Source: a virus
Lineage: Duplodnaviria; Caudoviricetes
Virus record (IMG/VR): IMGVR_UViG_3300042567_001420
Direction: 5' to 3' (one strand)
Length of the DNA: 64,000 bases
Shown: piece after piece, positions 36,339-62,136 of the stretch
Numbering within the stretch: the first letter of the stretch is position 1
Layout: every line of letters starts with the position of its first letter
Translations under genes and position numbers: made by a program
Notes under the pieces: model-generated
Told to the model about the DNA's origin: nothing
Database searches by the model: none
Seen by the model: the letters and a program-made list of their open reading frames with translations, nothing else

Positions 36339-36658
36339 TAACAATAACAGAATCAGCAAAAACAAAAATTCTAGATCTTTTCGCAGAAGAAGGTAATCCT
36401 GACTTATGTTTAAGAACATTTGTGCAGGGTGGAGGATGTAGCGGAATGAGTTATGGATTCACATTCGATGAGATAATGAACGAAGACGATTTCGAAATGC
36501 CGCTTGAAAAAACTAAAATATTAATTGATGCCATGAGCATGCAATATCTAACAGGCGCAACTGTGGATTACAAAGAAGATATACAAGGTTCACAGTTTGT
36601 TATAACTAATCCAAATGCTCAATCCACTTGCGGTTGCGGTAGTTCGTTTAGTGTATGA
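36335..36658 (+). CDS. erpA: A-type Fe-S carrier ErpA-like
   Basis: [25 protein letters not shown]. Confidence 0.85.
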
Positions 36659-44915: not shown

Positions 44916-44944
44916 ATTATAACACCTATGTGCGTATAAGTCTA
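44916..44944 (-). promoter_or_regulatory. sigma70-type promoter for gp45
   Basis: TAGACT-N17-TATAAT with TG extended -10. Confidence 0.6.
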
Positions 44945-44946
44945 TA

Positions 44947-45822
44947 CTATTTCCCATACATAGCCATCATTTTTTCATAGGTCTCTGTTAGACCTTCTTC
45001 CAAATTATATTTCGGTTCCCATTCAATTAATTTCTTAATCAATGTATTGTCCGAAACAAATTGCATATGTCCAGTTGCTGGACCGTCACCTATTTCAATT
45101 TTAATTCCAGAAAGTTTTTCTAAAATTTTAACAACATCACTTATGGAATGCATTTGACCTGTAGCAACATTAACGGGACCTGTATAATCAGTATCCAATA
45201 ATTTTACAATTGCGTCAGAAGCATCTGCAGTATAAATAAAATCTCGCTGTGGTCTTAAATTTAATACTCGTGCTTTTTTACGAATAACCAAACCTTCAAC
45301 TAATTGATTAACCAAATCTGGTCTATCTAATGCTGTAGTTGGTCCGTAAATGTTTGTTAATCTCACAATGATGTTAGGTACATCAGAATAAAATTTTGCC
45401 ACTTCTTCGCCTAAGAACTTACTGAAAATGTATTCATTCTGATAAGTACTTAATGGTTGTGATTCGTCAACCGGCAAAGTCATTTTACTGCGATCATATA
45501 AAAGAATAGAACTAAAACTTAATAGCTTTTTAATTGGTCTATTCTTGAAATATGCAAATACCTTTTTCAACGGTATTACATTCTTTTCAATCGCTAACAT
45601 ATTCTGACAATTTAATTCTGTATGATTAGAACTACCAATCATCATAATCACTTTATCAAAATCTAATTTGTCTAGAACTTCAGGTAGATGCTCCAATGTA
45701 GGACAATCCACGTGCTTCATTCCTGTTGCAGGTTTTGTGCGACCAACAGAAACAATATCAGGATATTTTTCTAATATTTGTGGGCCTAGAAACCCGCTTG
45801 AACCTAGAAGAATAGTGCTCAT
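44947..45822 (-). CDS. NAD-dependent epimerase/dehydratase (SDR)
   Basis: GSSGFLG, YIFSK, RLTNIYGP, RDFIY. Confidence 0.85.
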   Translation of the reverse strand: MSTILLGSSGFLGPQILEKYPDIVSVGRTKPATGMKHVDCPTLEHLPEVLDKLDFDKVIMMIGSSNHTELNCQNMLAIEKNVIPLKKVFAYFKNRPIKKLLSFSSILLYDRSKMTLPVDESQPLSTYQNEYIFSKFLGEEVAKFYSDVPNIIVRLTNIYGPTTALDRPDLVNQLVEGLVIRKKARVLNLRPQRDFIYTADASDAIVKLLDTDYTGPVNVATGQMHSISDVVKILEKLSGIKIEIGDGPATGHMQFVSDNTLIKKLIEWEPKYNLEEGLTETYEKMMAMYGK

Positions 45823-46136
45823 TTATTTACCTTACGTATTTCAAAATTATCAGCATTGCCTTCGCCTGTTTCAAGATCATGCACATATAACAACATCAAT
45901 GCGTAGTGTAAAACCTTTAACAAGTCTTGTCTGTTACGACCAGCTTTTTTGCCATATCTTTGGACGTATTTCATTACATTGCCTGCAGTAAATCCTACAC
46001 CATGCCCATTATCAATAATAAACTCGGATGCTTGGAATCTATTCATTGAATAATGTTGTCCATATGTTGCATCAATGTATTCTTGAAACTCTTTAATTAA
46101 CCCACCCTCATTATATTTGTAGTCTATTTCTGCCAT
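45819..46136 (-). CDS. Conserved T4-like hypothetical protein (DUF3310-like)
   Basis: GFTAGNVMKYVQRYGKK...DLLKVLHY (family name from recall). Confidence 0.65.
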   Translation of the reverse strand: MAEIDYKYNEGGLIKEFQEYIDATYGQHYSMNRFQASEFIIDNGHGVGFTAGNVMKYVQRYGKKAGRNRQDLLKVLHYALMLLYVHDLETGEGNADNFEIRKVNK

Positions 46137-46849
46137 GGTAGCTCTCCATTATATTTTTGTTTCATTATTTCATTACCTTGCAGGAAAAATTTAGCTTGAA
46201 CCGAATCTGCTCTATTTCCTGCTCGGTAGTTTACAGTATACTTTCCCGTCACCTCACATGCTATTTTATTATCTTTTAGCGTGTACGTCAATGCTCGATC
46301 TACTTCAGGTTGATCGTCTGGATGTCTTGCACGTCTATACCAAATAGGACTTAATTGAAGCGCAAGAGGTTTGGTGAAGAAGAAACAATTAACATCTACA
46401 AAATAATCTCTAATAACCGATTCCCAATTACACAGACTTTCGCAATCATCATTACAAATGAACTTACCTTCGTTATCTACAATCTTACGCAAGGTTGCTG
46501 CCCATTGATTATCTTTTACAGTATCAAGCAATACTTCCACATGTTCTGGCTCTAGCCAGTTATCTTCATCTAGGTAACCAATGTAATCACCTTTTGCAAT
46601 GTGGGTAAATCCGCCATAGATTCGGTGACCATTATATTGTTCTTTACCTGTAGCATAAGGCAAAACAACCATATCTATATTTGGAAAATCGTGCTCTGCT
46701 AATATAGCAGCAACCTTCTCAAAATGTTCCTCACCATCAACAACAATTAGATGCTGAATATCTTTATGTGTTTGCAATTGAACCGATTTAATATTATCGT
46801 GAAGATAATTAGAACCAGTTGTTGCTGTTATAATAGTCACTTCACTCAT
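46124..46849 (-). CDS. Family 2 glycosyltransferase
   Basis: IVVDG, YLDEDNW. Confidence 0.8.
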   Translation of the reverse strand: MSEVTIITATTGSNYLHDNIKSVQLQTHKDIQHLIVVDGEEHFEKVAAILAEHDFPNIDMVVLPYATGKEQYNGHRIYGGFTHIAKGDYIGYLDEDNWLEPEHVEVLLDTVKDNQWAATLRKIVDNEGKFICNDDCESLCNWESVIRDYFVDVNCFFFTKPLALQLSPIWYRRARHPDDQPEVDRALTYTLKDNKIACEVTGKYTVNYRAGNRADSVQAKFFLQGNEIMKQKYNGELPWQK

Positions 46850-47640
46850 CGTTTTCCCTCAAAATAATTTCTATATGTTCTTGCAAGATATTGTCTATTG
46901 CGTTCCTGTATTTGTCCCATCTTAGAATTAACTTCTGTTTCAGCCTTTTCTCTTGTAGAACCCCAATCAACATCGCTTCTATATTTTAAAGCATATACAC
47001 CATTGCGATATCCATTCATATTCATACGAATACTAAAATCTTGGCAGTCGTAACCGCAAGGAGCAAGATCGTCATTGTAGAATCCTACCTCCTGATAACG
47101 CTTCCATAGAACGCAAGTAGGACTTCTAATAACTGCTTCAGCTTCAACTAAATCACCGTGTTTAATTTCCCGAAAATGTTTTAGACCTAATTGTTTCCAA
47201 TGTCCAAATTCAGACTCTGCAAAGTTATATTCAGATATACCATCACCCGCTAATTGCATACTGATACCCAATCTAAAAGACATGTATCCTAAATCAGTAT
47301 ATTCCTCAAACAAATTAGTAAATAGTATATCAATATTTTCTTCTTCAATAATTACATCGTCTTGTACTGTGAATATTAAATCATTTGGGTTGGGATTGCA
47401 ATTATCTCTAATATATGATAGACCAATATTTAAACTTTTAATCTCATGAACATTCGGGGCATGCAATAAAACAATATTTGGATTGTTATAGCTCTTAATA
47501 ACTTCTTCGCTTTTATCAGTGCATCCATCAATAATAAAAATTGCAGTATATTTACCTGCAACAGATTGCGCAATTCCTTCAAGTACTTTCCCAATCATAT
47601 TCTCTTTATTGAATACGGGAGTAATAAAATAGCTTTTCAT
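46846..47640 (-). CDS. Family 2 glycosyltransferase
   Basis: ITPVFNKE, IIDGCTDKS, VQDD. Confidence 0.8.
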   Translation of the reverse strand: MKSYFITPVFNKENMIGKVLEGIAQSVAGKYTAIFIIDGCTDKSEEVIKSYNNPNIVLLHAPNVHEIKSLNIGLSYIRDNCNPNPNDLIFTVQDDVIIEEENIDILFTNLFEEYTDLGYMSFRLGISMQLAGDGISEYNFAESEFGHWKQLGLKHFREIKHGDLVEAEAVIRSPTCVLWKRYQEVGFYNDDLAPCGYDCQDFSIRMNMNGYRNGVYALKYRSDVDWGSTREKAETEVNSKMGQIQERNRQYLARTYRNYFEGKR

Positions 47641-48335
47641 TTTGTTAAAATGCCTTTGTTAAATTTAAATTCTTTAGAGGTATTTTTAGGGTCAAATCCT
47701 GCGCATTCCGCTAAAGTTGGCGGATACAACGGCATATCATTTTCGTCATATCCGTTGCCACAAAAATCATATGGATTAACTAATTGTGTTCTTGTTTCTT
47801 TGAACCATCCATCTTTCATGCAATGAATCATTGCATCGTCTTTAACTAATGGCCAAATTACATCTCTTAAAAATATTTGATCGCCCACATAATAATTCAT
47901 CTGAGATGTATAAGAATTTAATAAATTTAATATAGGAGTTCCAAATTTACCCTTGTATCCAAATGCGCATCCGATAATAGGGAATTCAAAATGTGCTTCG
48001 TGATCTCGGAATGTGTGGAATTTTTCATTAGATTGCAACCATTGATTGACTGCTTGATGTTCTCTGAAAGTAATTCTACTATCCGAGTCTCTGACAATTA
48101 CAATATTAGATTCATCCTCAAACATTGCTCTGAACCTCCAGAACATACCATATGTTCCATCAGTTACTTCTATAATGTTAGCATCTGTTAGATTAGAAAA
48201 TTTATTTTTATCATCAGTATAAATTCTAAATTCCCAATCAGGATAATATTTCTTTGCTAATTCATACTGACGATTTGCGCCAACGATATATCTGGGATCA
48301 TTTCCCCAAACACTTAATGATATAATTTTTACCAT
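47637..48335 (-). CDS. Glycosyltransferase-like hypothetical protein
   Basis: GMFWRF, RDSDSR (DxD), GDQIFL. Confidence 0.5.
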   Translation of the reverse strand: MVKIISLSVWGNDPRYIVGANRQYELAKKYYPDWEFRIYTDDKNKFSNLTDANIIEVTDGTYGMFWRFRAMFEDESNIVIVRDSDSRITFREHQAVNQWLQSNEKFHTFRDHEAHFEFPIIGCAFGYKGKFGTPILNLLNSYTSQMNYYVGDQIFLRDVIWPLVKDDAMIHCMKDGWFKETRTQLVNPYDFCGNGYDENDMPLYPPTLAECAGFDPKNTSKEFKFNKGILTK

Positions 48336-49279
48336 ATAAAATTCTTTTTATAGTATTCCACAATCTCAACTAATGAATCTTTAAACTCTGCTTCTGGTTT
48401 CCAACCCAATGCTTTTAATTTAGAATCATCTATAGCATATCTAACATCTTGGCCGACACGCTTTTCTGAAAAATCCATAAATTCTGTATAGTGGATAACA
48501 TTCCAATTAAAGAATAAATCAACTAAATGTTTAGCAACAATAATATTTTGTTCCTCATAATTGCCTGATATATTGTAGGTTTCGTTAACTGTTCCCGATT
48601 CAATAATTTTTAATACTGCAGTTGCTGTATCGGATACGTGCAACCAAGTTCTTCTAGGAGATCCGTTGTCATGCATAATAATAGGTCTACCTAGAGATAA
48701 ATTTTTAATTGCTTTAGGAATAAACTTCTCAACATATTGACCAATTCCATAATTATTAGTTGGTCTAACAATTACATAGGGAACATCATATGTTCTTGCC
48801 CATGCTGTTACCAACATATCAGCTGCAGCTTTTGTCGCTGAATACGGATTGCTTGGTTTTAATAAATCTGTTTCAGTATGAAACCCATCTACGATATCCC
48901 CATACACTTCATCTGTACTAAAGTGTAATAATATTGGTCTACGAGCTTTTGGTATAGCTTTAATTAGTTCTAGTATTTTATGGACACCGTTGATGTTGCT
49001 TCTAAGGAAAACATCTGAACTAACAATACTATTGTCGACGTGTGTTTCAGCTGCGGTATTAATAAAATAATCGCAGTCATGAAGTCTGTCTAGATCATTA
49101 ATATCCAATTCTAAAAATTTGAATTTTGGATACTTTAATAAGTCTGGAAGTAAATTTAGATTGCTCGCATATGTTTTACTATCTATCCCTAAAACATGAT
49201 ACCCCGCATCTAAACATTTTTTGGTTACATGATAACCTATAAATCCAATGCACCCTGTAACATAAACAACTTTAGTCAT
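48329..49279 (-). CDS. rfbB: dTDP-glucose 4,6-dehydratase-like
   Basis: AAETHVDNSI, FSTDEVYG, SNPYSATK, NNYG, RVGQDVRY. Confidence 0.88.
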   Translation of the reverse strand: MTKVVYVTGCIGFIGYHVTKKCLDAGYHVLGIDSKTYASNLNLLPDLLKYPKFKFLELDINDLDRLHDCDYFINTAAETHVDNSIVSSDVFLRSNINGVHKILELIKAIPKARRPILLHFSTDEVYGDIVDGFHTETDLLKPSNPYSATKAAADMLVTAWARTYDVPYVIVRPTNNYGIGQYVEKFIPKAIKNLSLGRPIIMHDNGSPRRTWLHVSDTATAVLKIIESGTVNETYNISGNYEEQNIIVAKHLVDLFFNWNVIHYTEFMDFSEKRVGQDVRYAIDDSKLKALGWKPEAEFKDSLVEIVEYYKKNFIW

Positions 49280-50054
49280 TATAAACTTTCAATCCATGTC
49301 CAATGCCATACAACTTCAATCCTCCGAACTCTTCTAGAGTACTGATATCAACTGGATGGCCTATATATTTTTCATCACTTGTAGATTCAACTACAAATCT
49401 TTTCTCTATATTATTTATATCGCAGTACATCCCCAAAAATTCACTTAGGGTAATTTTGTTCCGATATACACAATCTATATCATTACCTACTAACCAATCG
49501 CTAGTGGCATAATTATTCAATGAATAATCAATAACATTGTATAAATCTTGTACTGAAAAATAGTCGAATTCGCGATCATTCTTTATTTTAAATTCACCTT
49601 CGGTTGCATTGTATTGTTTTAACAATCTATGCGAGGGTTCACCTGCACCAAAACATCCATATATTCTTAGTGTCAGATACTTAGGACCAAAACACAAATT
49701 CTTAATTAATCTTTTGGAAAATACATACGCATTTCTTGCATTGGTTTTTTCAATGCCAGAACCCAAATTAATATAAAATTTAAATTTATCCTCATTAGTA
49801 TAGAAGTTATAGAACAATGACATGTTCTTGCCAACATTCGAAGCATTGTTTTCGTGTAGTTCTGTTTTGCCGCCGAAGGTTAAACAATTAATAACAACAT
49901 CGGGACGAAGAACATCTAATATCTTTGTAACTGTTTGATTATCTAAAAGATCTATCTCATTTTTATAGATAGGAATAACTTCATGTTTTTTAGATAATAA
50001 CGGAACGATATATGAGCCAACAAATCCGCCGGCGCCTACAACTAATATTTTCAT
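49272..50054 (-). CDS. NAD-dependent epimerase/reductase (SDR)
   Basis: GAGGFVG, YVFSK, LRIYGCFG. Confidence 0.8.
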   Translation of the reverse strand: MKILVVGAGGFVGSYIVPLLSKKHEVIPIYKNEIDLLDNQTVTKILDVLRPDVVINCLTFGGKTELHENNASNVGKNMSLFYNFYTNEDKFKFYINLGSGIEKTNARNAYVFSKRLIKNLCFGPKYLTLRIYGCFGAGEPSHRLLKQYNATEGEFKIKNDREFDYFSVQDLYNVIDYSLNNYATSDWLVGNDIDCVYRNKITLSEFLGMYCDINNIEKRFVVESTSDEKYIGHPVDISTLEEFGGLKLYGIGHGLKVYND

Positions 50055-50066
50055 AAAATACTCAAT

Positions 50067-50855
50067 TTAATAAAGCTTAGCTAATATACATAAATTATTT
50101 TTATGGGCGACAGCAAATGAATCAAACCCATACTCACACACATCTATGACCTTAAATCCATTACGATTTAACAATGCCGTGGCTGATTTAATATTAAAGA
50201 AATTAATATGTTCGTGGATAATACCAATGTACGGTGCAGGGTTGTTTGGTATTTCAAAATAAATCCAGGTATTATCATTCGCATGTTCTTTTATTTTACC
50301 CAATGTATCATTAGGATCAGACACGTGTTCTAATAGATGCGTGCATAATATAAAATCAAAAATTTTGTTTTCATTAAGAGATATTGATTCAACCTTAGAT
50401 GTCAATGGAACGTTACTAATATCAAAAACATATTTTTTAGATTTATCAAACCAATCAGGAATAACCGATCCATTGTCGCCACCGTAATCTAATACTGTAT
50501 GTATTTGATCAACATCGATATATTGTTTAATTAATTTTTGTATACCTTCTTGTCTATGTGTTTTATAGGCAATACTATTAAACTTTTCTATATCAGTATA
50601 TCCTGGCTCAAACATAATTCGAGTACGCGTATATTCGTTGTCTCTATATCCGTTATAATATATTTTAGTTTCATCATCTGTGAATCTATCAGCAGATCCA
50701 ACAAAAGAACAATCTAAACATTTCATACCAACTATTGGCATGCCATTATCTGTATTATTTCCGAATATACGAAATTGTATAAATTTAGCTAAACCAGTTT
50801 CTTTGTATTCAACATTATTAGAATCACATGCTACACACTTAAAAACTTTATACAT
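50067..50855 (-). CDS. Class I SAM-dependent methyltransferase with N-terminal Cys pairs
   Basis: CVAC...CLDC, LDYGGDNG, HLLEHVSDP, HEHINFF. Confidence 0.8.
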   Translation of the reverse strand: MYKVFKCVACDSNNVEYKETGLAKFIQFRIFGNNTDNGMPIVGMKCLDCSFVGSADRFTDDETKIYYNGYRDNEYTRTRIMFEPGYTDIEKFNSIAYKTHRQEGIQKLIKQYIDVDQIHTVLDYGGDNGSVIPDWFDKSKKYVFDISNVPLTSKVESISLNENKIFDFILCTHLLEHVSDPNDTLGKIKEHANDNTWIYFEIPNNPAPYIGIIHEHINFFNIKSATALLNRNGFKVIDVCEYGFDSFAVAHKNNLCILAKLY

Positions 50856-51588
50856 TATATTTTACAATCATCTCTCGGTTTAATTCTTCGTCACTTAAAA
50901 ATGGGAATAAATCATGCAGGCCTGCTTGTTTACCATTCTTTAGCCCTTGTGCTGGAGCAATTTCTTGGTCTGTATTACATTTACAAACTACAAGCATAGG
51001 GCCAGGAGTGTTTAATATATGTTCAAATTCTTTTAACTGATCTACATCATTTATTTCTTTATAACCTAAACCAAATGTAGTTGCTACATTCTCAAACAAT
51101 GGAAACCAAATACCTGTAGTATTACTTGTACCATATACTCTACCTTGATAGTATTTTGTTTGCGTATTCCGAATACAAGAATATCCGTTGTTATTGAGAA
51201 TGACAAATTTAATATCTAGATTGTGTTGTTTAGCAACGGCAAGTTCTTGTATGTTAGACATAAAACTGCCATCGCCTAAGAATGTTATAGCTTGTTGTTT
51301 ACTCGCTAATGCTACGCCCACTGCCGCAGGAACTGCCCAGCCCATATCTGCTTGGGATACGCTACAAACAAATCGTTGTCCTTGTTTGGGTTTAAATGCA
51401 GTGCTTCCGATATAATACCCACTACCCGCGTCTGCCATTACTGTAGCAGTTGGTTTACTATATTTGTTTATAGCATCTATCACTGCGTACATATTAATTT
51501 CGTCACCGGCTTGTAAATATTCCTGTTGTATTACCGGCCATTTATTTTTCCAATGATTACATTTGTCTATCCATTCAGTTCTATTCAT
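50848..51588 (-). CDS. TPP-dependent enzyme, C-terminal (TPP-binding) half
   Basis: ADMGWAVPAA, GDGSFM...NNNGY. Confidence 0.85.
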   Translation of the reverse strand: MNRTEWIDKCNHWKNKWPVIQQEYLQAGDEINMYAVIDAINKYSKPTATVMADAGSGYYIGSTAFKPKQGQRFVCSVSQADMGWAVPAAVGVALASKQQAITFLGDGSFMSNIQELAVAKQHNLDIKFVILNNNGYSCIRNTQTKYYQGRVYGTSNTTGIWFPLFENVATTFGLGYKEINDVDQLKEFEHILNTPGPMLVVCKCNTDQEIAPAQGLKNGKQAGLHDLFPFLSDEELNREMIVKYNV

Positions 51589-52610
51589 ACCATAACCTCA
51601 AAGAAATCGGAAAGATCCATATTGTATTTTTCACTTATGTCTAATATATCTTTATTTAGTTCGTCAGAATCAATATCAACAACGATCTTTTTGCTACCAA
51701 TACTAAACTGTTTAGGGTCATAACCTATCACACTACTATTTAAACTACTACCAAGAACTAATAATAGACTTGCATTTTGTACTACAAAATTTCCATATCG
51801 GCAACCCTTGATACCAATTGCTCCCATATTTAATTCATGATCGTTACTTGCATAATCGGTTGCGCCGTATGTTGTTACAAATGGTAGTTTATATTTTTCT
51901 ATAAATTTAATAAAGGAATCTACTGTATTTGTTTGTCTAATGCCCTGACCAACTAACACAACTGGTCTTTCTGATTGTTCTAATTGATTCTTTAATTCGT
52001 CAAGATTTGTATGAATACGATTAATAGGATCATCTGCAATAAACAATTTATATGTTTCTGGCATTTCTGCAGTTTGTATATCTCCGGGAATATCAACCCA
52101 GCACGGCCCAGGTCTTCCTTCTTTTGCCATATATAACGCCTTTGTAATTACATATGCAACTTCATCTATGCTTGTTATAAAATGAGCATACTTAGTCATG
52201 TTCTTATACATAGAAACAACATTGTGTTCCTGAATACCATACTTACGCAAGTTAATGTTCTTTGTGGTATTAATCCAACTAGAACAAGTATTCATTCTAA
52301 CATTGCCAGATATGAATAATACCGGTACTCCATCTTGCCATGCATCTAATACAGATGTGGCACAATTTGTTCCTGCACACCCGGTAGTAGGATTAACAAC
52401 GGATACTTTACCGGTATAAATTGCTTCGCCCATTGCCGAATGGCCTGCACCTTGTTCGTTATGATAACAGATATAGTTTATTTTACCATTCTTAATAAAC
52501 CCATCATTTAATCCGCTAGCGCCGCCGCCCATAATCCCATGTACATTTTCAATGCCTAAATTATAAAGATAATCTGATATCCAATCGCATACACGCATAT
52601 TAACCTCCAA
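51585..52610 (-). CDS. TPP-dependent (acetolactate synthase/YerE-like) enzyme, N-terminal half
   Basis: HNEQGAG, GRPGPCWVDIPGDIQ. Confidence 0.85.
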   Translation of the reverse strand: MEVNMRVCDWISDYLYNLGIENVHGIMGGGASGLNDGFIKNGKINYICYHNEQGAGHSAMGEAIYTGKVSVVNPTTGCAGTNCATSVLDAWQDGVPVLFISGNVRMNTCSSWINTTKNINLRKYGIQEHNVVSMYKNMTKYAHFITSIDEVAYVITKALYMAKEGRPGPCWVDIPGDIQTAEMPETYKLFIADDPINRIHTNLDELKNQLEQSERPVVLVGQGIRQTNTVDSFIKFIEKYKLPFVTTYGATDYASNDHELNMGAIGIKGCRYGNFVVQNASLLLVLGSSLNSSVIGYDPKQFSIGSKKIVVDIDSDELNKDILDISEKYNMDLSDFFEVMV

Positions 52611-53934
52611 ATAAACTCATAAAACTATCTACTACTTCACCAATATATTTAATTTGTTCAGGAGTAATAACGGGACTAGTACCATGGAAATAAGTATTAG
52701 TCATTGTCATTGTAGCAATTGGAAAATTATCTCTTGCATCTGCAGGGTTCATTAAATGCGAATATGCAGGCTGTAGCATAATATTGCCAGCAAAATATGG
52801 TCTTGTCTGAATTAATTTTTCTTCTAAGTAATCTACAATGTCACTACGCTTGAAAGGAGATCCCGCCCGAATTGTTAATGGGAATGCGAACCAACTTGGG
52901 TCTGAGTATTCTTGTGCTCTTGGTAGATGGAAATACTCCTCGTACTTGCTGTAGATATCAAAAAGCAAACTATAATTACGACGACGTAGTGCATGTATTG
53001 TCCCCAATTTTTCTAATTGAACTAATCCCATTGCGCCTTGTAATTCAATAGGCTTAAGATTATATCCAATCTCGTCATAAACATATTTGTGGTCAAAAAT
53101 TTCACCTGGCATTTCAGGAATCCATTCTTGAAATCGTTTGCCACAAGAACCACATTTTAATTTATTAGCTTCCGGCCCTACACAGTAACAACCTCGGCCC
53201 CATTCTCTAAATGAACGAAGAATAACTTCTGTCTCATAATTCTTACATGCTACAAATCCGCCTTCGCCCATTGTCATATGGTGTGCTGGATAGAATGAGC
53301 AAGATGCCATTTCACCAAATGATCCCAATGGTTGTCCGCCATAGGTTGAACCTAAAGCATCGCAACAATCTTCTAATAGAATCAAATCATAACGATTGAC
53401 AAGTTCCATCACCCAACGCATATTAGGGGGATTGCCCAAGACGTGAGCAAATGTGATTACTCGAATGTCATGTTTCTTAATTAGTTCTTCCGCTCTAGTT
53501 AAATCTAAATTAAGTGTATCCAATTCAATATCTAAAAACACAGGTTCAAACCCTACTTGTAATGTAGGATTTAATGTTGTAGGAAAACCTGCAATAGGCA
53601 TCAACACCTTTGTACCTTTAGGTAAGTTGTATCCTCGCTTAGATGTAAGCGTAGACATCATTAATAAATTAGAACTTGATCCTGAATTAGTAAGTATTCC
53701 AAAGTTCTTTTGAAATTGCTTAGGAAATTGTTTCTCAAATTTTATTGATTGATCGCCCATTACAAGCCAGCTATCTAACAATGTAGAAACTGCCGCCATA
53801 ATTTCATGTTCGTCAAAATATGGACCAGCATAATTTACAAAATCCTTACCGGCAGTCCATGTCTTATTTGCTGCCTTGTTTTGGAAATATGCAGCTACTC
53901 CGTTAATGATGTCTTGTTTATTCATGGTTTCCAA
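52600..53934 (-). CDS. rfbH: CDP-4-keto-6-deoxyglucose 3-dehydrase (RfbH/DdhC, E1)
   Basis: NSGSSSNL, EDCCDALG, SFYPAHHMTMGEGG, GRGCYC, GYNLK. Confidence 0.88.
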   Translation of the reverse strand: METMNKQDIINGVAAYFQNKAANKTWTAGKDFVNYAGPYFDEHEIMAAVSTLLDSWLVMGDQSIKFEKQFPKQFQKNFGILTNSGSSSNLLMMSTLTSKRGYNLPKGTKVLMPIAGFPTTLNPTLQVGFEPVFLDIELDTLNLDLTRAEELIKKHDIRVITFAHVLGNPPNMRWVMELVNRYDLILLEDCCDALGSTYGGQPLGSFGEMASCSFYPAHHMTMGEGGFVACKNYETEVILRSFREWGRGCYCVGPEANKLKCGSCGKRFQEWIPEMPGEIFDHKYVYDEIGYNLKPIELQGAMGLVQLEKLGTIHALRRRNYSLLFDIYSKYEEYFHLPRAQEYSDPSWFAFPLTIRAGSPFKRSDIVDYLEEKLIQTRPYFAGNIMLQPAYSHLMNPADARDNFPIATMTMTNTYFHGTSPVITPEQIKYIGEVVDSFMSLFGG

Positions 53935-54854
53935 TAGGCATAATTGCCTTCCAAATGTCTTACTTGATTTTTATTCCTTGCTTCGTCTTCTTTAAAAGGA
54001 TATGTCCAATGTTCATTATAATATTCTGCCCATACTCTATATCCGTTGTTTGCCTCAGGTGACCAACGATATCCTAATATGCCGAAGAATAACTGATGCA
54101 CGCCGCCAGTTTGTATACCTACTTTGCCTCGTTTTTTCGCATGTTCTACATATATAGGAGAAGATGTGGATGCTCCAGAAATTAAAACGTCATATTCATA
54201 CTTATCAATTTCATTTTTTATGTATTCTACATTTTGTTCCCACGTTTCGCAACCAGGATATTGTCTGTCATCCATTAAAGGATGGTACGGAGTACGAATA
54301 CATCCTACTAAATCAAACGGTGCAACTAAATCTAAATTGTCTCCCCATATTTTATCAATCTGTTGCCATTGCGATTTAATAGTTTCACAATGCGTAGATA
54401 TAATTAATACTTTTTTATTTTTTAAATATTTTGTCCAAGGTGTTTCGACCTTAAATGTTCCGCATAGCCCGCCTCTTAGAACACCGATAGGATCCAAAAC
54501 CATAAGACTATCATGCCCAAAGAACATAGGCTTTTCGCCGAATGTTTTTGTAAAGGTCGTATCATTTTGTATGGCTAATGACATATCAACAAATCCGAGT
54601 ATATCACATTCTTTCATGGATTGTGTTAACATAGGAACAATGGTATCTATATAATAGTCAGTTGTACCTGGAGTTACCCCACCCTCAAAAGAAATAACAG
54701 TATTATTAAAGAATTGTGAGGATATACTAGTATTGTTAAACAGATTTTGTAGAACATACCCCGCACTATTATCTAGACGCAATAATGAAAAAGGTTCATT
54801 TGATTGCAATTTTTCTGAAATTAAATCATTAACCTCAAAGAAGTTTTTAAGCAT
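53922..54854 (-). CDS. Hypothetical protein, possibly GT-D-like
   Basis: PFSLLRL N-terminus; operon context. Confidence 0.4.
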   Translation of the reverse strand: MLKNFFEVNDLISEKLQSNEPFSLLRLDNSAGYVLQNLFNNTSISSQFFNNTVISFEGGVTPGTTDYYIDTIVPMLTQSMKECDILGFVDMSLAIQNDTTFTKTFGEKPMFFGHDSLMVLDPIGVLRGGLCGTFKVETPWTKYLKNKKVLIISTHCETIKSQWQQIDKIWGDNLDLVAPFDLVGCIRTPYHPLMDDRQYPGCETWEQNVEYIKNEIDKYEYDVLISGASTSSPIYVEHAKKRGKVGIQTGGVHQLFFGILGYRWSPEANNGYRVWAEYYNEHWTYPFKEDEARNKNQVRHLEGNYAYWKP

Positions 54855-55557
54855 AATATTTTCCTAAATGTTCTTTGTCTTGTTTAATATATTTAAATGC
54901 AGTCTGAATATCGGAAGGCAGTTTTGAGTAAAACGTATGCATCTCAGTCTCAGCTTGTTGTTTACTATAGTTTGTTCCTGGCGGATGTGAGATTGTGTAA
55001 CGATAATCTCTGATAACAGGCCTCTTACTAATATAACCAATTGCAGTATATACTATATCAAAGCTCCATCCCATTTTATAGGGGGCAAAATCGATATTAC
55101 GATTCTTAGCATCCTCAATAATATCTTTATGAATGAACCAACAAGTACAATCAGGATTTGCAACCATTTTATAATAAGGCTCTTCTAGATCAAAAGATTT
55201 AAGATCAGCTCTACTAGAATCATAGAATGTATAATCTACATTCGGAGCATAGATGCCCCAGTTGTAAGTGTCAAAACATTCTTCAGCGCCAGCATAAATT
55301 TCAGTCCAATTATCATAAGATGCATCTGCTTGAATGTGAAACATTACATCCGCATCAAACAACTCAATTGCTTTTAAAAATTGTGCTGTAAAATAACTGT
55401 CCTCGCCAATGTTGTGCCAATTAGGATCGTCCTCACGGTGATTGTCGTCACTATTAATAACGACAGGCACGACCCCAATGGCACTCAGTTGCTTTTGCTT
55501 TTCTTTTGTTTTTTCATACTGTCCGCGCCAGTTAAAGATAAATGTTTGTATTTTCAT
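54847..55557 (-). CDS. Hypothetical protein, possibly glycosyltransferase
   Basis: IQADA DxD-like motif; operon context. Confidence 0.4.
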   Translation of the reverse strand: MKIQTFIFNWRGQYEKTKEKQKQLSAIGVVPVVINSDDNHREDDPNWHNIGEDSYFTAQFLKAIELFDADVMFHIQADASYDNWTEIYAGAEECFDTYNWGIYAPNVDYTFYDSSRADLKSFDLEEPYYKMVANPDCTCWFIHKDIIEDAKNRNIDFAPYKMGWSFDIVYTAIGYISKRPVIRDYRYTISHPPGTNYSKQQAETEMHTFYSKLPSDIQTAFKYIKQDKEHLGKYYA

Positions 55558-56429
55558 CGTTTTAAAATTTTATTATACACTATAGCATCGAACCAATTAA
55601 GGAAGTTATCCAATACTACAAATGACGGAGGGATTCCGTTTAAAAATTTTGGAGCATTAACATAAGATGCATATAGTTCGTCATCTTGATCAACCTTCAT
55701 TATATGTGCAATAGCCTCTTCCTGGCTATTGAAATCGTGTAAATTTATGAATGCGGCAGGATTAAAGTCATTTGCAATTGTTTCGGACCCCCAATAAATT
55801 GGAACAGTTCCTGCATAGAATGCGTGAAGAATTTTCTCCGTAGTATAACCGGGATGAGAAGTATGTTCAAAACAAATATTAAATTTTCTTGTCGAAAGGA
55901 AATTTATTTTGCTTTCTTCGCCTGTTAAATTAGCATTGATGTTGTTATACAATTTGCCGCCGCTATCTACACGTTTAATATTATTTAGCTTATTAAAGAA
56001 TTCATTGCGCTCATTACAATTTGGATTCGATACTACAAACGTACAAAAGTCTGTTTTTTCTTTAATCTCGGGATTAAAGATATAGTTAAAATCAAATCTT
56101 GTTTCATGGATATGCTCTAATGCCCACATATAAATTACATACAAGGGTAATCTGTAATGCCATGGTTCAAATATATGGTCAAAACTAATAGCATAGTCGC
56201 AATCAAAATTCTCAGGTCTACGATTTTCACCTGTGAACAATATCTTAGTACATTGATCTCTGGTGATATTTAAGTTATTACGACCAAAGTTATCATCACC
56301 GAATAATAAAAAATCCGGCGATTCACTCATGCCTACGATATCTACTTTATATCTAGTCTGAAAAAGATATATAAAGAACGTTGCAAGATGATCATGTGTA
56401 TCTGCAAATGCTATTCTCAACGGCTTCAT
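55554..56429 (-). CDS. Family 10 glycosyltransferase (alpha-1,3-fucosyltransferase-like)
   Basis: FTGEN, VDSGG, KFNICFEH...GYTTEKI, PIYWGS. Confidence 0.88.
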   Translation of the reverse strand: MKPLRIAFADTHDHLATFFIYLFQTRYKVDIVGMSESPDFLLFGDDNFGRNNLNITRDQCTKILFTGENRRPENFDCDYAISFDHIFEPWHYRLPLYVIYMWALEHIHETRFDFNYIFNPEIKEKTDFCTFVVSNPNCNERNEFFNKLNNIKRVDSGGKLYNNINANLTGEESKINFLSTRKFNICFEHTSHPGYTTEKILHAFYAGTVPIYWGSETIANDFNPAAFINLHDFNSQEEAIAHIMKVDQDDELYASYVNAPKFLNGIPPSFVVLDNFLNWFDAIVYNKILKR

Positions 56430-57346
56430 GCAAATGCCTGATTCAATGCAGACATAATGTTTTCGTGATCTTTAGCAGTCAATGAATTGCTAAAGATTGG
56501 GATTGCATGATACGTACATTTGATATTTAAATCTTTTGACATTGTCTCATGTACATCTTCATAATCTGGATGCTTAGTATTAAATGATACAAATGTTTTT
56601 GTGTCATCCATATAATTATCATAAGTCTCGCAGAATACATACGGGCCAGAGTTCTTACCAACAATAACATTGCAGTATGTACTTAGATAAGAAATCTCCT
56701 GTAGATCTCCATCGGTAACAGGACCTATAATATCGCCGGTGAATAAAATATTTGTAGCACCCTCAGTATCAAATTTATTAGTGCAGATAAAATGTGTATT
56801 GGGATACATTTCTGCAAAGGGCAAAATGTGTTCCTTCATATCAGAAGAGAATGACTGATTAGATTGAGGTACATTATTGCAGACTAATACTTTTCGAACA
56901 CCAATTGTAGAATTAACATATTGATCTACGCCTGCAATACTTAAAGCATTGTAGCTGATACGAGGCAAATAATCTTCTTTATCTTTATGTAATTTAACAG
57001 AAGTACCGAATGTCTCATTAATTGTATCTACAATGTCGCCCCATTCTTCGTAGATAGTATTCATATTAATACCACCATACTTACAGAACACATCCCAGTT
57101 ACATCCAACCCACGTATTAACAAACAAAGTATCTTCATCCTGATAGAATGGAGTCTTGTTGTCTAAATCATCAGGCGACCCTATTAAAGGAATGCCCAAT
57201 TCTGCAGTTAACTTTTCTGCATTTTTATGCAGATATTCGAATGTAAATTCTGGTAGTTGTGATTGAATGTGACGAATAAATTCTTTATGCGTATGTAGAT
57301 CACCTTTGTGATAATGATTAAAGAAAACAATTTTAGACATTATCAA
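56426..57346 (-). CDS. Hypothetical protein, GT-B-like
   Basis: IVGKNSGP motif; operon context. Confidence 0.45.
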   Translation of the reverse strand: MIMSKIVFFNHYHKGDLHTHKEFIRHIQSQLPEFTFEYLHKNAEKLTAELGIPLIGSPDDLDNKTPFYQDEDTLFVNTWVGCNWDVFCKYGGINMNTIYEEWGDIVDTINETFGTSVKLHKDKEDYLPRISYNALSIAGVDQYVNSTIGVRKVLVCNNVPQSNQSFSSDMKEHILPFAEMYPNTHFICTNKFDTEGATNILFTGDIIGPVTDGDLQEISYLSTYCNVIVGKNSGPYVFCETYDNYMDDTKTFVSFNTKHPDYEDVHETMSKDLNIKCTYHAIPIFSNSLTAKDHENIMSALNQAFA

Positions 57347-57692
57347 TACCTTTATACAATTTAACAGAATCTTCTCTCAAAGATTTTTCATTTTTAATAG
57401 CATCATCAACTAGCAAGTTAATAGCTTGAACATATTTAGGACGCTTAACCTTGAAGCAAATATCAACTTTGCGTTTTAGATCAGCCATCTCTTCATCTGA
57501 TTTTGCAGTTTGAAATGCATCTTCAAGCATCCACATTCTAATATGAATGATAGCAAGTTTCTCAACAATCTCACCAAGATTGTCAGTTGCAATATAATTA
57601 GAATCTGGCATACCAAAGTCTTTAGCATTATCTAAAACATCGTTAACTGTTCTTTTGATAACTTCCTCAATGCTTTCACCTAAATTGGTCAT
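57333..57692 (-). CDS. Hypothetical helical protein (DUF4254-like)
   Basis: EIVEKLAIIHIRMWMLED (family name from recall). Confidence 0.45.
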   Translation of the reverse strand: MTNLGESIEEVIKRTVNDVLDNAKDFGMPDSNYIATDNLGEIVEKLAIIHIRMWMLEDAFQTAKSDEEMADLKRKVDICFKVKRPKYVQAINLLVDDAIKNEKSLREDSVKLYKGIDNV

Positions 57693-58845
57693 TGATTTCT
57701 CCCACTACTTTATCTAAAAATTTCATGTCTGATTCTGTAACAAAATGATTGTTACCGATATAAACACCTTGTGTCTGAATAATGTCAGCATTGGTTCTTT
57801 TCTTAGTAGTTTCTATTTTATAATCTTTAAGAAAAGGCTGTGACAATAAATTACCCGCAACAACTGGTCTGTATTCAATTGTATGTTTAGTGAATGTATC
57901 CTTCATAGCTAACATGATCTCATTTGATCTGCAGATAAAAGGAAAACAGAAGCTGCTAATTGTTTTGGGGTTTTTAATAGTATAAAACAGATTGGGATAT
58001 TTGTCAATAATTTCCGTAAATAGTTTGTGATTTCTATTTCGAATCTCAACCATTTTATCCAAACGTTTTAATTGCGAGATACCAAGTACAGCACAAATTT
58101 CATGATTTCTAAAATTGTATCCGTCGGTAACAAACAAGAATTGTTTATCCACATCAGGATATTTTTTAGCATACTCATCGAATTTAATTGATTCTCTTGC
58201 CATACCATGGCTTCGTTTAATTTTCATCAAATCATAAAGCTTAGTATTGTTTGTGGAAATCATTCCACCTTCTACTGTAGACATATGATGTCCAAAATAG
58301 AAACTGAATGTGGCGCCTAAACTATTTGAACCACATTTTTCGCCGTATGGTGTTTTGCAACCATGTGATTCGCAGATATCATCTAATATAATTGCTCTAG
58401 GGAAAATGCGTTTAATACCTTCATTGTTTGCGGAAAACCCTAACAAATGAGTAATGAATACCATTTTAATATCATGCTTCAATGCAATCAATCTAGCTTC
58501 TTCGAGATCAAAACTAAAATTATCTAGATTAACATCACAAAATACTGGTTCAAGACCAAGCTGCATAATAGGTGAAACATTCGTCATCCATGTGCAAGCA
58601 GGAACTAATACTTTGTCACCCGCTTTTAATTTGTATAACTCTTTAACTGCCGCTACCAATAAGAAGTTTGCAGTACTTCCGCTAGAAACATATAAAGAAT
58701 GTTTTGCGCCAAGCCATTCACTCCATTCGTTTTCGAATTGTTTTACCTTTTCACCGAATGTGAATTTCTTAGCTGTCAGCGCAAAATGCGCCATCTTCAA
58801 TCTGTCCATAAAGGTGATTGTCTCACCCATCAACGGCCACTTCAT
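57676..58845 (-). CDS. DegT/DnrJ family PLP enzyme, ColD-like 3-dehydratase
   Basis: SSGSTAN, DICESHG, SFYFGHHMSTVEGG (His at the usual Lys position), GYNFR. Confidence 0.75.
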   Translation of the reverse strand: MKWPLMGETITFMDRLKMAHFALTAKKFTFGEKVKQFENEWSEWLGAKHSLYVSSGSTANFLLVAAVKELYKLKAGDKVLVPACTWMTNVSPIMQLGLEPVFCDVNLDNFSFDLEEARLIALKHDIKMVFITHLLGFSANNEGIKRIFPRAIILDDICESHGCKTPYGEKCGSNSLGATFSFYFGHHMSTVEGGMISTNNTKLYDLMKIKRSHGMARESIKFDEYAKKYPDVDKQFLFVTDGYNFRNHEICAVLGISQLKRLDKMVEIRNRNHKLFTEIIDKYPNLFYTIKNPKTISSFCFPFICRSNEIMLAMKDTFTKHTIEYRPVVAGNLLSQPFLKDYKIETTKKRTNADIIQTQGVYIGNNHFVTESDMKFLDKVVGEINDQFR

Positions 58846-59777
58846 AGTATACCTTTTTCTGTTTTATACCAATCAATCGTACGCTTGAGTCCTTCCTCAA
58901 ACGATACCTTTGGTTTCCATCCCATGGAAAACAATCTTGAGTTTTCCATTTTGCGTCTAGGTGTACCATTAGGTAGAGTTGTATCCCACTTAATTTCACC
59001 CTTGAAACCAACAGCATCTTTAATTAATTCTGAAAGTTCTTTAATTGGAATTTCAACATCGCTACCTACATTAATAAATTCAGCTTTGTCGTAATTATTC
59101 ATCAAGAACAAACAAGCATCTGCTAAATCATCTACATATAAAAATTCTCGTGTAGGTGATCCATCTCCCCAGCACATAATACTATCTTCATTGTTCTTCA
59201 TTGCGTTAAAGAACTTAGTAATGATACCTGGGATAACGTGACCTTGCTCAGGAATAAAATTGTCATGAGGCCCATACAAATTTGCAGGCATCAAACTAAT
59301 AGCGTTGAAACCATATTGACGTCTGTAATATTCGCACATACGCATACCTGTAATTTTAGCTAATGCGTAACCTTCATTAGAAGGTTCTAGTGGCGCTGTT
59401 AACAGGTATTCTTCTTTAATAGGTTGAGGGGTGACCTTAGGATAAATGCAGGCCGAACCCAAGAACAATAATTTACTACAATTGTTTCTATATGCTGCAT
59501 CAATTACGTTAGTCTGAATAGCAAGGTTATCATAAATAAACTCAGCAGGATTAGTTGCGTTATAATTGATACCTCCGACTTTAGCTGCTGCTAAGAAAAC
59601 ATATTCAGGTTTTTCTGTACTAAAGAAATTACGAACTGCTTGTTGATCTCGTAAATCCAATTCACTTTTAGAACGAAGAATTAGATTATCGTAACCCTCA
59701 TTCTGAAGTTTACGCACAATAGCAGATCCTACTAAACCATTATGACCTGCAATAAAAATTTTACTATTTTTTTCCAT
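58842..59777 (-). CDS. fcl: GDP-L-fucose synthase (or ColC-type epimerase-reductase)
   Basis: GHNGLVG, AAAKVGGI, GSACIYP, YALAK, NLYGP, GTPRR; start set to MEKNSKIF. Confidence 0.92.
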   Translation of the reverse strand: MEKNSKIFIAGHNGLVGSAIVRKLQNEGYDNLILRSKSELDLRDQQAVRNFFSTEKPEYVFLAAAKVGGINYNATNPAEFIYDNLAIQTNVIDAAYRNNCSKLLFLGSACIYPKVTPQPIKEEYLLTAPLEPSNEGYALAKITGMRMCEYYRRQYGFNAISLMPANLYGPHDNFIPEQGHVIPGIITKFFNAMKNNEDSIMCWGDGSPTREFLYVDDLADACLFLMNNYDKAEFINVGSDVEIPIKELSELIKDAVGFKGEIKWDTTLPNGTPRRKMENSRLFSMGWKPKVSFEEGLKRTIDWYKTEKGIL

Positions 59778-59784
59778 ATTATCC

Positions 59785-60792
59785 TCACTCAAAATTAGTA
59801 CACATATCTTCAACTAAACTATCGAATGTATGCTCAGGCTGCCAACCTAACACACTCTTTGCCTTTGATGGATCGCCCAATAAAGTTTCTACTTCTGCAG
59901 GGCGGAAGTATTTTTCATCTACTCGAATAATTACTTTATTATTGTAATTATTAATACCTACTTCGTTTAGGCCTGCGCCTTCCCAACGAATAGACAAGTG
60001 ATAGTATGGCGCGCACTTATTAACAAAATCTTTTACCGAATATTGTTCACCGGTGGCAATAACAAAATCATCAGGTGTGTCTTGTTGCAACATTAACCAC
60101 ATTGCTTTAACATAATCTTTAGCGTGCCCCCAATCACGTTTTGCATTTAAATTGCCCATAGATAAACATTCTTGCCGACCTGAACTAATTGCTTCAAGTC
60201 CATCTACAATTTTCTTGGTTACAAAATTATGTCCTCGACGAGGAGATTCATGATTAAATAAAATACCAGAACAGGCAAACATATTATAAGATTCACGATA
60301 ATTTTTAACAATCCAAAATCCATATAGTTTAGCTACACCATATGGTGAGCGAGGATAAAATGGGGTTGTTTCTTTTTGTGGGATTTCTTGCACCAATCCA
60401 TATAACTCAGATGTAGATGCCTGATAAATTTTAGTCTTATGTTCTAAATTTAGTAATCTAACTGATTCAAGAATTTTTAAAGTACCTAATGCATCAACTT
60501 GTGCAGTATATTCAGGAGTCTCAAATGAAACTTTAACATGACTTTGTGCAGCCAAATTATAGATTTCATCTGGCTCATACTTTTTAAGTATGTTCATAAG
60601 TGACAAAGAGTCAGTTACGTCGCCATAATGTAGTTTTAAATTTGGGTTATCGTAGATGTGGTCGATGCGACCTGTGTTGATTGACGAACTACGTCTAATA
60701 ATGCCGTGAACCATATAACCCTTTTCGAGTAATAGTTCTGCAAGGTACGATCCGTCTTGGCCTGTAATACCAGTAATTAATGCTGTTTTCAT
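59785..60792 (-). CDS. gmd: GDP-mannose 4,6-dehydratase
   Basis: [37 protein letters not shown]. Confidence 0.96.
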
Positions 60793-60826
60793 TTTCAATT
60801 CCTATAATGAATTTATAATATACATT

Positions 60827-60834
60827 TATTTATA
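60827..60834 (-). promoter_or_regulatory. T4-type late promoter for the glycan operon
   Basis: TATAAATA ~35 nt upstream of gmd. Confidence 0.7.
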
Positions 60835-60850
60835 ACACCTTAAATAGGTT

Positions 60851-60872
60851 AAAGGGCACTTTCGTGCCCTTT
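60851..60872. terminator. Hairpin terminator after the AAA+ gene
   Basis: AAAGGGCAC-TTTC-GTGCCCTTT. Confidence 0.7.
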
Positions 60873-62107: not shown

Positions 62108-62136
62108 ATTATAACACCTTTTGGTTTCGGTGTCAA
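62108..62136 (-). promoter_or_regulatory. sigma70-type early promoter
   Basis: TTGACA-N17-TATAAT with TG extended -10. Confidence 0.85.

Follow-up and report, generated by a model that had tools for sequence, protein, structure and literature searches.

Organization of the sugar operon

This study concerns a 64,000-nucleotide stretch of an uncultured viral genome (IMG/VR record IMGVR_UViG_3300042567_001420; Duplodnaviria, Caudoviricetes), hereafter the window, and within it an island of about 16 kb that encodes the synthesis and transfer of sugars. The island consists of 19 minus-strand open reading frames (ORFs; 60798/60792 to 44947) whose overlaps or gaps at the junctions do not exceed 13 nt. 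Independent gene calls on four other assemblies with an identical island returned the same 19 genes, and at least four JGI and ENA samples yielded this identical island in independent assemblies; its methyltransferase gene (g12) recurs letter for letter on contigs of up to 206.6 kb. A preliminary description, made without database searches, had proposed 19 tightly coupled genes, and both the ORF layout and the independent gene calls bear this out. The existence of a 16-kb sugar-synthesis and transfer operon is thus confirmed.

The source phage is an uncultured T4-like lake myophage. The T4-like core genes gp43, gp44, gp45, gp62, regA and uvsX are all present in the window, alongside a DnaB-type helicase gene, and the family-B DNA polymerase is ~50% identical to cyanomyovirus polymerases. 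On its 3′ side the island is followed by gp45, gp44, gp62, RegA and HSP20. For comparison we used 80 related IMG/VR loci (numbered L), at least 23 of which are contigs carrying an island of 14-18 kb between the same ATPase and gp45 genes, as well as two relatives with a completeness rating of 100% (222 kb, and 203 kb with terminal repeats).

Conserved signals at the island boundary

Four regulatory features frame the island:

62108-62136, minus strand: early-type promoter, a perfect sigma-70-type TTGACA-17-TATAAT with TG, before the upstream AAA/CbbQ-like ATPase gene
60851-60872, minus strand: hairpin with a 9-bp stem and a GAAA loop, AAAGGGCAC-GAAA-GUGCCCUUU, then UUUAACCUAUUU
60827-60834, minus strand: late promoter motif TATAAATA, the T4-type late-promoter consensus, 34 nt before the gmd ATG
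44916-44944, minus strand: gp45 promoter, a sigma-70-like TAGACT-17-TATAAT with TG, directly before gp45

The first of these marks the upstream unit as early-type, judging by its sequence. The hairpin comes after the stop codon of the upstream ATPase gene and carries a loop of the GNRA type; the 53-nt stretch that contains it has a folding energy of -20 kcal/mol (z -5.4). Only 16 nt beyond the hairpin lies TATAAATA, and both elements are kept in eight diverged relatives (L002, L003, L006, L009, L011, L014, L015 and L063), where changes in the stem are compensatory (GGGCAC/GTGCCC to GGGCGC/GCGCCC). The motif is also kept in L008, despite a different upstream gene. Throughout the window there are 16 TATAAATA sites, of which 9-10 stand 10-100 nt before an ORF on the same strand; among the ORFs behind them are a head-protein-like gene, an RCC1 propeller gene and other units. 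Between g19 and gp45 there is no hairpin.

The hairpin would terminate transcription of the early unit or otherwise insulate the island from it, and from the conserved T4-type promoter motif we infer that the island is expressed late. The view that this is a late, insulated operon, with a terminator at 60851 and a start at TATAAATA, therefore holds at the level of sequence signals.

Two further observations concern this regulatory setting. A second TATAAATA occurs at 49412-49419 (minus strand), inside g13 and ~130 nt before the start of g14, and could either serve as a late promoter within the operon or have arisen by chance. The upstream ATPase (60889-62076, minus strand) ends in an acidic tail, ...DEDIPF, which takes the form D/E-x-I/V-P-F in most relatives.

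The GDP-mannose branch points to colitose as well as fucose

The 5′ part of the island holds the enzymes of a GDP-mannose branch, together with one small gene and a fucosyltransferase:

g01, 59785-60792, minus strand: GDP-mannose 4,6-dehydratase (Gmd; TIGR01472, 545 bits, above cut-off; also Pfam)
g02, 58842-59777, minus strand: GDP-L-fucose synthase-like 3,5-epimerase/4-reductase (Fcl, possibly ColC-like)
g03, 57676-58845, minus strand: ColD-type GDP-4-keto-6-deoxymannose 3-dehydratase (aligned over its full length to 2gms, 2.8e-58)
g04, 57333-57692, minus strand: 119-aa protein with a weak DUF4254 match and no sugar-enzyme identity, overlapping g05
g06, 55554-56429, minus strand: GT10 fucosyltransferase with a FucT_N domain and no hydrophobic (membrane) segment

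The Fcl-like g02 scores 440 bits against NF047922, under the cut-off of 500, and matches E. coli Fcl (1bsv) at 3e-97. In the alignment of g03 to 2gms, a His-His pair occupies the position of the ColD catalytic H188, where an aminotransferase has Lys. An ordinary aminotransferase was considered for g03 and ruled out, ColD being the closest solved structure and His-His standing in for Lys. Of the GDP-L-colitose pathway, the island thus has Gmd and a ColD-type enzyme whose catalytic position carries His where aminotransferases carry Lys. Since the branch includes a 3-dehydratase, colitose is a likely product, and by its predicted enzymes the branch points to GDP-L-colitose as well as GDP-L-fucose.

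Relatives that lack g03 keep the fucose route and the GT10 gene, and across relatives g04 occurs together with g03 and g05. The GT10 enzyme is 38% identical to the fucosyltransferase of phage S-SKS1.

The NDP-glucose branch fits a yersiniose-like branched sugar

A second set of genes belongs to a nucleoside diphosphate (NDP)-glucose branch and includes a split thiamine diphosphate (ThDP) enzyme, an S-adenosylmethionine (SAM)-dependent methyltransferase and three short-chain dehydrogenases/reductases (SDRs):

g09, 52600-53925, minus strand: RfbH/E1-type NDP-4-keto-6-deoxyglucose 3-dehydrase (NF011936, 434 bits against a cut-off of 423)
g10, 51585-52598, minus strand: ThDP enzyme, N-terminal and middle domains (YerE/acetolactate-synthase-like), first half of the split enzyme
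g11, 50848-51588, minus strand: C-terminal ThDP-binding domain, second half of the split enzyme
g12, 50067-50855, minus strand: SAM methyltransferase (Methyltransf_23) with CxxC near its N-terminus
g13, 49272-50054, minus strand: short RmlD-like SDR, candidate side-chain or 4-keto reductase (YerF role)
g14, 48329-49279, minus strand: NDP-glucose 4,6-dehydratase, nearest to dTDP-type enzymes
g19, 44947-45822, minus strand: SDR epimerase/reductase, the final island gene

The 3-dehydrase g09 matches Yersinia E1 (3bcx) at 2.4e-94, retains the active-site His and has cysteines that align with the Fe-S region of E1. The dehydratase g14 reaches 300 bits with TIGR01181, under the cut-off of 365, and matches 2hun at 1e-61. 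For the methyltransferase, sequence searches of the PDB returned no relative.

In Yersinia, YerE transfers an acetyl branch from pyruvate onto an NDP-4-keto-3,6-dideoxyhexose, which is then reduced by YerF (PMC9306805). The island has both the 4,6-dehydratase and the E1 3-dehydrase, the latter with its His and Fe-S cysteines; a ThDP enzyme of the acetolactate-synthase superfamily adjoins E1, and g13 and g19 are candidates for a YerF-type SDR. By sequence, this branch fits the production of a yersiniose-like branched 3,6-dideoxyhexose. The association of the two key enzymes extends beyond phages: at 17 of 68 bacterial loci, RfbH has a ThDP enzyme within 10 kb, which argues that the pairing is not accidental.

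The split ThDP gene pair is found in ~25 diverged phage loci (with ThDP genes at least 50% identical to that of the window). The two halves lie in different frames and overlap or nearly abut (gaps of 0-29 nt in the alignments), and the more distant phage alleles, like the bacterial ones save L118, align in a single frame. An assembly error was considered as the origin of the split and rejected, given its conservation in the ~25 diverged loci and in independent assemblies.

The domains of the 19 island proteins include no sugar-1-phosphate nucleotidyltransferase, and NTP_transferase (PF00483) was not found in the two complete relatives. Nor is there an E3 reductase domain among the 19 proteins, although no genome-wide E3 search was made. 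Lacking a nucleotidyltransferase and an E3-type reductase, the phage would depend on the host for GDP-mannose, NDP-glucose and electron donors.

These assignments largely agree with the preliminary description, which had named two nucleotide-sugar routes, three further SDR enzymes and a methyltransferase. Both routes are present by homology, the GDP branch being wider than proposed by virtue of its 3-dehydratase and likely colitose product. Family searches recovered the three SDR enzymes as g13, g14 and g19, with g14 resembling dTDP-glucose 4,6-dehydratase, and placed g12 in Methyltransf_23.

Five supported glycosyltransferases and two candidates

Besides the GT10 enzyme, six genes encode established or candidate transferases, and a seventh is a small phage protein:

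g05, 56426-57340, minus strand: GT-B glycosyltransferase with a GT9 heptosyltransferase-like fold (model predicted local distance difference test, pLDDT, 79.5)
g07, 54847-55557, minus strand: candidate GT-A-like transferase of a virus-restricted family with a conserved QxD motif
g08, 53922-54854, minus strand: GT-D (DUF1792)/TagA-TarA-like fold (model pLDDT 88.8)
g15, 47637-48335, minus strand: candidate transferase with an invariant RDxD motif
g16, 46846-47640, minus strand: GT2 glycosyltransferase (Pfam)
g17, 46124-46849, minus strand: GT2 glycosyltransferase (Pfam/NCBIfam)
g18, 45819-46136, minus strand: small DUF3310 phage protein, not recognizable as a sugar enzyme

Structure comparison identified two of these proteins. 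The g05 model matched WaaF (1psw) at an E value of 1e-5, and WaaF, WaaC and the protein heptosyltransferase TibC at 1e-5 to 1e-4 with a probability of 1.0. The g08 model matched a DUF1792 protein (5v4a; Z 11.5 over 219 residues) and the TagA/TarA structures 7mpk (Z 10.1) and 5wb4 (Z 9.8), the next match falling to Z 4. Enzymes of the GT-D type and GT9 enzymes of the TibC type are cytoplasmic protein glycosylators.

For g07 and g15 the evidence comes from invariant acidic motifs and from the neighborhood of their families. The g15 family counts 5,839 representatives at E values up to 0.001 and is without a Pfam model; in other proteins its domain is fused with GT2 or TPR domains. Language-model neighbors of g07 and g15 in the Atlas are GT2-like and hexosyltransferase-like viral clusters. 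The g05, g07 and g15 families are themselves nearly all viral there, some with giant-virus members. Profile searches with alignments of g05, g07, g08 and g15 against PDB sequences gave noise only, and a deeper 34-sequence g15 profile found no match there. Pfam assigned no family to homologues of g07 or g15 (14-16 scanned for each), and a g15 homologue search returned unnamed proteins only. Local hhalign comparisons of g07 and g15 with the GT2 alignments of the island gave no signal, in a setting where the GT2-versus-GT2 positive control failed too. In two close relatives (L007:1560-2966 and L008:7660-9066), the homologue of g07 is part of a larger fusion protein of 469 aa, which carries an additional domain of ~230 aa.

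Collectively, five glycosyltransferases are supported (GT10, two GT2, one GT-D/TagA-like and one GT9-like GT-B), and two more are unconfirmed candidates. The claim of at least three clear glycosyltransferases corresponds to g06, g16 and g17. Of the four called possible, g08 and g05 gained support from their folds, and g07 and g15 stay as candidates.

The pathway lacks membrane steps

None of the 19 island proteins contains a hydrophobic segment of the membrane-span type, and no polytopic membrane protein was found among the 414 ORFs of 23 islands at the same locus. In the two complete relatives, searches for Wzx (PF01943), Wzy_C/WaaL (PF04932) and the ABC2 / ATP-binding cassette (ABC) transporter family (PF01061) found nothing; the priming transferases Bac_transf (PF02397) and WecA-type (PF00953) were not found in these relatives either, and the searches gave positive results in control genomes. 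The island accordingly shares with O-antigen loci the clustering of nucleotide-sugar genes with several glycosyltransferases, and lacks their initiating transferase and export genes. The earlier statement that flippase, polymerase and ligase are missing thus extends from the island to the 23 related islands and the two complete relatives, and its description of the enzymes as soluble agrees with the predicted lack of membrane segments. Because there are no membrane export genes and the promoter is of the late type, the product is probably attached inside the infected cell.

These absences bear on a different destination for the glycan, the host envelope. The oligosaccharide would be built on host undecaprenyl-phosphate and moved to lipopolysaccharide (LPS) or capsule by a host flippase, ligase or ABC transporter, altering the surface of infected cells and their debris; this would keep out competing phages or prevent progeny from adsorbing again. 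Gmd, Fcl, ColD, RfbH, the ThDP enzyme, GT2, GT10 and the GT9-like enzyme are all families of bacterial O-antigen or LPS-core loci, and RfbH is paired with a ThDP enzyme at 17 of 68 bacterial loci. However, searches found no priming transferase and no flippase, polymerase, ligase or ABC2 permease in the island, its 23 variants or the two complete relatives, and host Wzx and Wzy usually recognize only their own repeat units. Replacing the cell surface from a conserved late promoter, insulated by a hairpin, would also come at a poor time for a lytic phage. Remodeling of the envelope is the published reading for the clusters of P-SSM2 and S-SCSM2R (PMC1079782, PMC12801897); for this island we consider it rather unlikely.

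Modified DNA as the acceptor, with transferases placing rare sugars on modified bases, finds some encouragement in the position of the island, which lies within the replication-gene region and adjoins gp45, and in the varied DNA glycans known from phages (Pyle et al. 2024, in the summary given by PMC12619734). Yet no member of the T4 alpha- or beta-glucosyltransferase families was found in the operon (Pfam), no clamp-binding-like C-terminal tail occurs on any of the 19 proteins, and late timing would leave early-replicated DNA unmodified. A search for hydroxymethylase genes had been suggested as a check; the ThyA/dCMP-hydroxymethylase family (PF00303) was not found in the two complete relatives. 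Hypermodification of DNA is on these grounds very improbable. The proposal that soluble enzymes decorate virion proteins or DNA is thus partly supported, by the soluble enzymes, the lack of export genes and the late-promoter signals; virion proteins are a plausible target, and DNA looks unlikely.

The island is mosaic and long resident in viruses

The island is mosaic between near-identical phage backbones. In L008, the flanks share 93-96% nucleotide identity with the window, compared with 67-86% in the island, and g03, g05 and g16 are missing. L066 displays the reverse pattern, with more divergent flanks, near-identical left and right island arms and a swapped center, and L001 matches g08-g09 at 98.8% with a different ThDP cassette. 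The g12 methyltransferase is present in none of the 80 IMG/VR loci and recurs only in assemblies of the identical island. By analogy, this cassette shuffling resembles that of O-antigen loci and receptor-binding genes, suggesting selection on glycan structure. Such mosaic diversity would also suit phage-phage competition played out on the host envelope.

Megablast of the island against deposited phage genomes gave no match. In a scan of bacterial contigs, a single RfbH query found nothing, and an RfbH alignment query returned matches. Identity between phage and bacterial RfbH does not exceed 46%, save on three short contigs, possibly phage-derived, at 57-64%, and the phage transferases were not found in the surroundings of bacterial RfbH. 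On both counts we reject the idea that the island was recently copied from a host O-antigen locus. The distance of RfbH and the absence of the phage transferases from bacterial RfbH neighborhoods indicate instead a long-standing viral gene set. That the transferases are of virus type and not found at bacterial loci also speaks against remodeling of the host envelope.

The three exceptional contigs (L082, L083 and L085) come from metagenome-assembled genomes (MAGs) labeled Terrimicrobiaceae, Pirellula and Omnitrophota. Their RfbH (57-64%) and 4,6-dehydratase (60-61%) are far closer to the phage genes than other bacterial matches are, and they may be phage fragments binned into MAGs.

Further sugar genes and candidate acceptors in the window

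Sugar genes also occur outside the island, at 12838-15384 and 37397-38110. The first of these regions is a compact operon:

12838-15384, minus strand: heptose-type nucleotide-sugar operon of five genes (nucleotidyltransferase, PfkB kinase, cupin, small ORF, SDR epimerase)

A SIS isomerase is missing from the operon. In L015, L018, L063 and L074, genes homologous to the kinase and epimerase of the operon sit inside the island, which ties the heptose-type donor to the same glycan system. The operon probably feeds the same glycan as the island, to judge from this gene arrangement, and a heptose-type donor fits the GT9-like g05.

The second region belongs to a pair at 36655-38110 (plus strand), where a calcineurin-like phosphoesterase gene overlaps a clear GT2 gene (PF00535, 1e-19), an extra transferase outside the island. 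At 4815-6761 (minus strand), a 648-aa fusion combines cytidylyltransferase-like and phrog_455/DUF6267-type domains and has TATAAATA in front of it; a separate DUF6267 protein follows at 8101-9270 (minus strand). A 223-aa accessory gene (43547-44218, minus strand) lies between gp45 and gp44 and is shared by five of the 80 IMG/VR loci (L003, L005, L006, L023 and L077). Pfam and PHROG searches with its product gave no match; its N-terminus (SQNGEDGII) recalls, as we presume, FkbM-type methyltransferases.

Two adjoining plus-strand genes encode candidate acceptors. The RCC1 seven-blade propeller protein (29418-30536) begins with a short N-terminal peptide followed by seven prolines, and its gene has TATAAATA 33 nt upstream. 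Beside this late-promoter gene, 30574-31788 encodes a Ser/Thr-rich protein of 404 aa with an N-terminal signal peptide, an Asn/Ser/Thr-rich low-complexity stretch of ~250 aa and a short hydrophobic C-terminus. The latter may serve as an acceptor for glycosylation in the manner of a mucin, or it may be a phage protein of the surface or periplasm.

This protein suggests another destination for the glycan, namely a phage product other than the particle surface: an exported Ser/Thr-rich protein glycosylated before Sec export, or a free or small-molecule-linked oligosaccharide. GT-D (DUF1792) and TibC-type GT9 enzymes glycosylate Ser-rich adhesins or autotransporters before export, and the window encodes this Asn/Ser/Thr-rich signal-peptide protein beside the late-promoter RCC1 gene. 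The connection is nevertheless pure association, the 30574-31788 gene and the island being unlinked in relatives, and fold matches give no acceptor specificity. We regard this destination as distinctly unlikely.

A proposed cytoplasmic glycan factory

Export-independent cytoplasmic assembly, the late promoter and the virus-type transferases are together best fitted by glycosylation of virion proteins. We therefore propose that the island is a cytoplasmic, late-infection glycan factory whose acceptors are virion proteins, and give this reading a probability of roughly 45%.

In the proposed mechanism, a phage late sigma factor would read the island from TATAAATA at 60827-60834, with the hairpin shielding it from the early unit. 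By homology, Gmd would convert host GDP-mannose to GDP-4-keto-6-deoxymannose, from which the Fcl-like g02 would produce GDP-L-fucose or, after C-3 deoxygenation by g03, GDP-L-colitose. In the other branch, g14 and g09 would turn host NDP-glucose into an NDP-4-keto-3,6-dideoxyhexose, to which the two-subunit ThDP enzyme g10/g11 would then add a two-carbon branch from pyruvate, the enzymes presumably acting in this order. SDR reduction and possible methylation by g12 would yield a yersiniose-like sugar, with a further donor probably coming from the heptose-type operon at 12838-15384. Five to seven soluble transferases would build the oligosaccharide without a lipid-carrier export step. The acceptors would most likely be virion surface proteins, glycosylated before or during assembly, and the mosaic island would constitute the variable "serotype" locus of the particle. 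The fuller picture, of a lytic T4-like phage that glycosylates its own particle (for example RCC1-propeller fibers or head decoration) with colitose, a ThDP-branched methylated dideoxyhexose and heptose from a recombining "virion serotype" island, is offered as a tentative possibility of only slightly lower probability.

Several points weigh against virion proteins as the target. The sequence analysis linked the glycan to no acceptor, virion proteins included. Undecaprenyl-linked O-antigen is the classical setting for GT2 and GT10 enzymes and for 3,6-dideoxy sugars, the sequences leave room for the enzymes to associate peripherally with the membrane, and an absence of export genes would be equally expected if host machinery were used. 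Late timing is predicted from the promoter motif. On the enzymatic side, g02 scores under the equivalog cut-off for Fcl, g07 and g15 are unconfirmed among the seven transferases, and both branches draw on host supplies, as no E3 reductase or nucleotidyltransferase is among the island proteins. The nucleotide carrier of the second branch gives mixed signals, with a dTDP-like dehydratase and a CDP-like E1.

Large "LPS-like" clusters have been recognized in aquatic T4-like phages since 2005, and we know of none whose glycosylated target has been demonstrated. The island sharpens this question, being complete for sugar tailoring and transfer, stripped of membrane steps and also wired to a conserved late promoter. 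Its shuffling between near-identical phages is the pattern expected of a surface structure under diversifying selection. Should the product sit on the virion, abundant freshwater phages would generally carry a glycan coat, with a bearing on adsorption, grazing, particle stability and host recognition. The island also contributes unusual enzymes, among them a two-subunit YerE-like carboligase, phage versions of ColD and E1 and a viral GT-D enzyme, and is a source of two large uncharacterized transferase-like families.

Comparison with known systems

The nearest counterparts are the "LPS/cell-wall" clusters of cyanophages, including those of P-SSM2 (24 genes), S-SCSM1 and S-SCSM2R (22 genes) (PMC1079782, PMC12801897). 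These too belong to lytic aquatic phages and form a large, tight operon of nucleotide-sugar enzymes with many soluble transferases (PMC1079782, PMC12801897). S-SKS1 likewise carries Gmd, Fcl and a fucosyltransferase in one operon, and RfbH-type genes occur in several Synechococcus phages, those of S-B05 and S-H68 being 41% identical to that of the island. The relationship to cultured cyanophages is nevertheless only distant (GT10 28-38%, RfbH 41%, DNA polymerase ~50%), with no match at the DNA level. The island adds to their repertoire a ColD-type dehydratase and the GT-D-like and GT9-like transferases, together with a documented conserved hairpin and late promoter and a fine-scale mosaicism; among deposited phage genomes, none encodes a true counterpart of its ThDP branching enzyme.

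Relative to the bacterial pathways, the island shares with colitose synthesis (Gmd-ColD-ColC) a ColD-type enzyme with the catalytic His, and with yersiniose A synthesis (Ep-Eod-E1-E3-YerE-YerF) an E1-type enzyme with the His and Cys motif and a ThDP enzyme beside it. It differs from bacterial dideoxyhexose pathways in lacking a nucleotidyltransferase and an E3 reductase domain and in having an extra methyltransferase. Compared with the yersiniose A pathway, its dehydratase is dTDP-like rather than CDP-like, and its ThDP enzyme is split into two overlapping genes.

Among bacterial viruses, mycobacteriophages decorate capsid and tail-tube subunits in the cytoplasm with their own transferases, according to the summaries of Freeman et al. 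2023 in PMC12619734 and PMC12801897. Virus-encoded soluble glycosyltransferases are common to both systems. As summarized there, however, the mycobacteriophages have few transferases, located near structural genes, and use host nucleotide sugars, whereas the island comprises 19 genes with sugar pathways of its own in the replication module of a T4-like phage.

Autonomous cytoplasmic glycosylation of virions is established in giant viruses, through the capsid glycans of chloroviruses and the fibril glycans of Mimivirus and Megavirinae (PMC10117803, PMC9614988). As the available excerpts of these accounts describe them, such viruses likewise encode Gmd-type and other rare "bacterial" sugar pathways, soluble transferases of multiple families, methyltransferases and clade-specific clusters, with no membrane export route. 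The Atlas neighbors of g15 include giant-virus clusters. In contrast, giant viruses have eukaryotic hosts, and their glycans were shown chemically on virions, the island being known from genes alone; 3,6-dideoxy and ThDP-branched sugars are not mentioned in those excerpts (PMC10117803, PMC9614988). If the phage does glycosylate its own particle, the island would represent a bacterial-virus counterpart of the giant-virus glycan factories.

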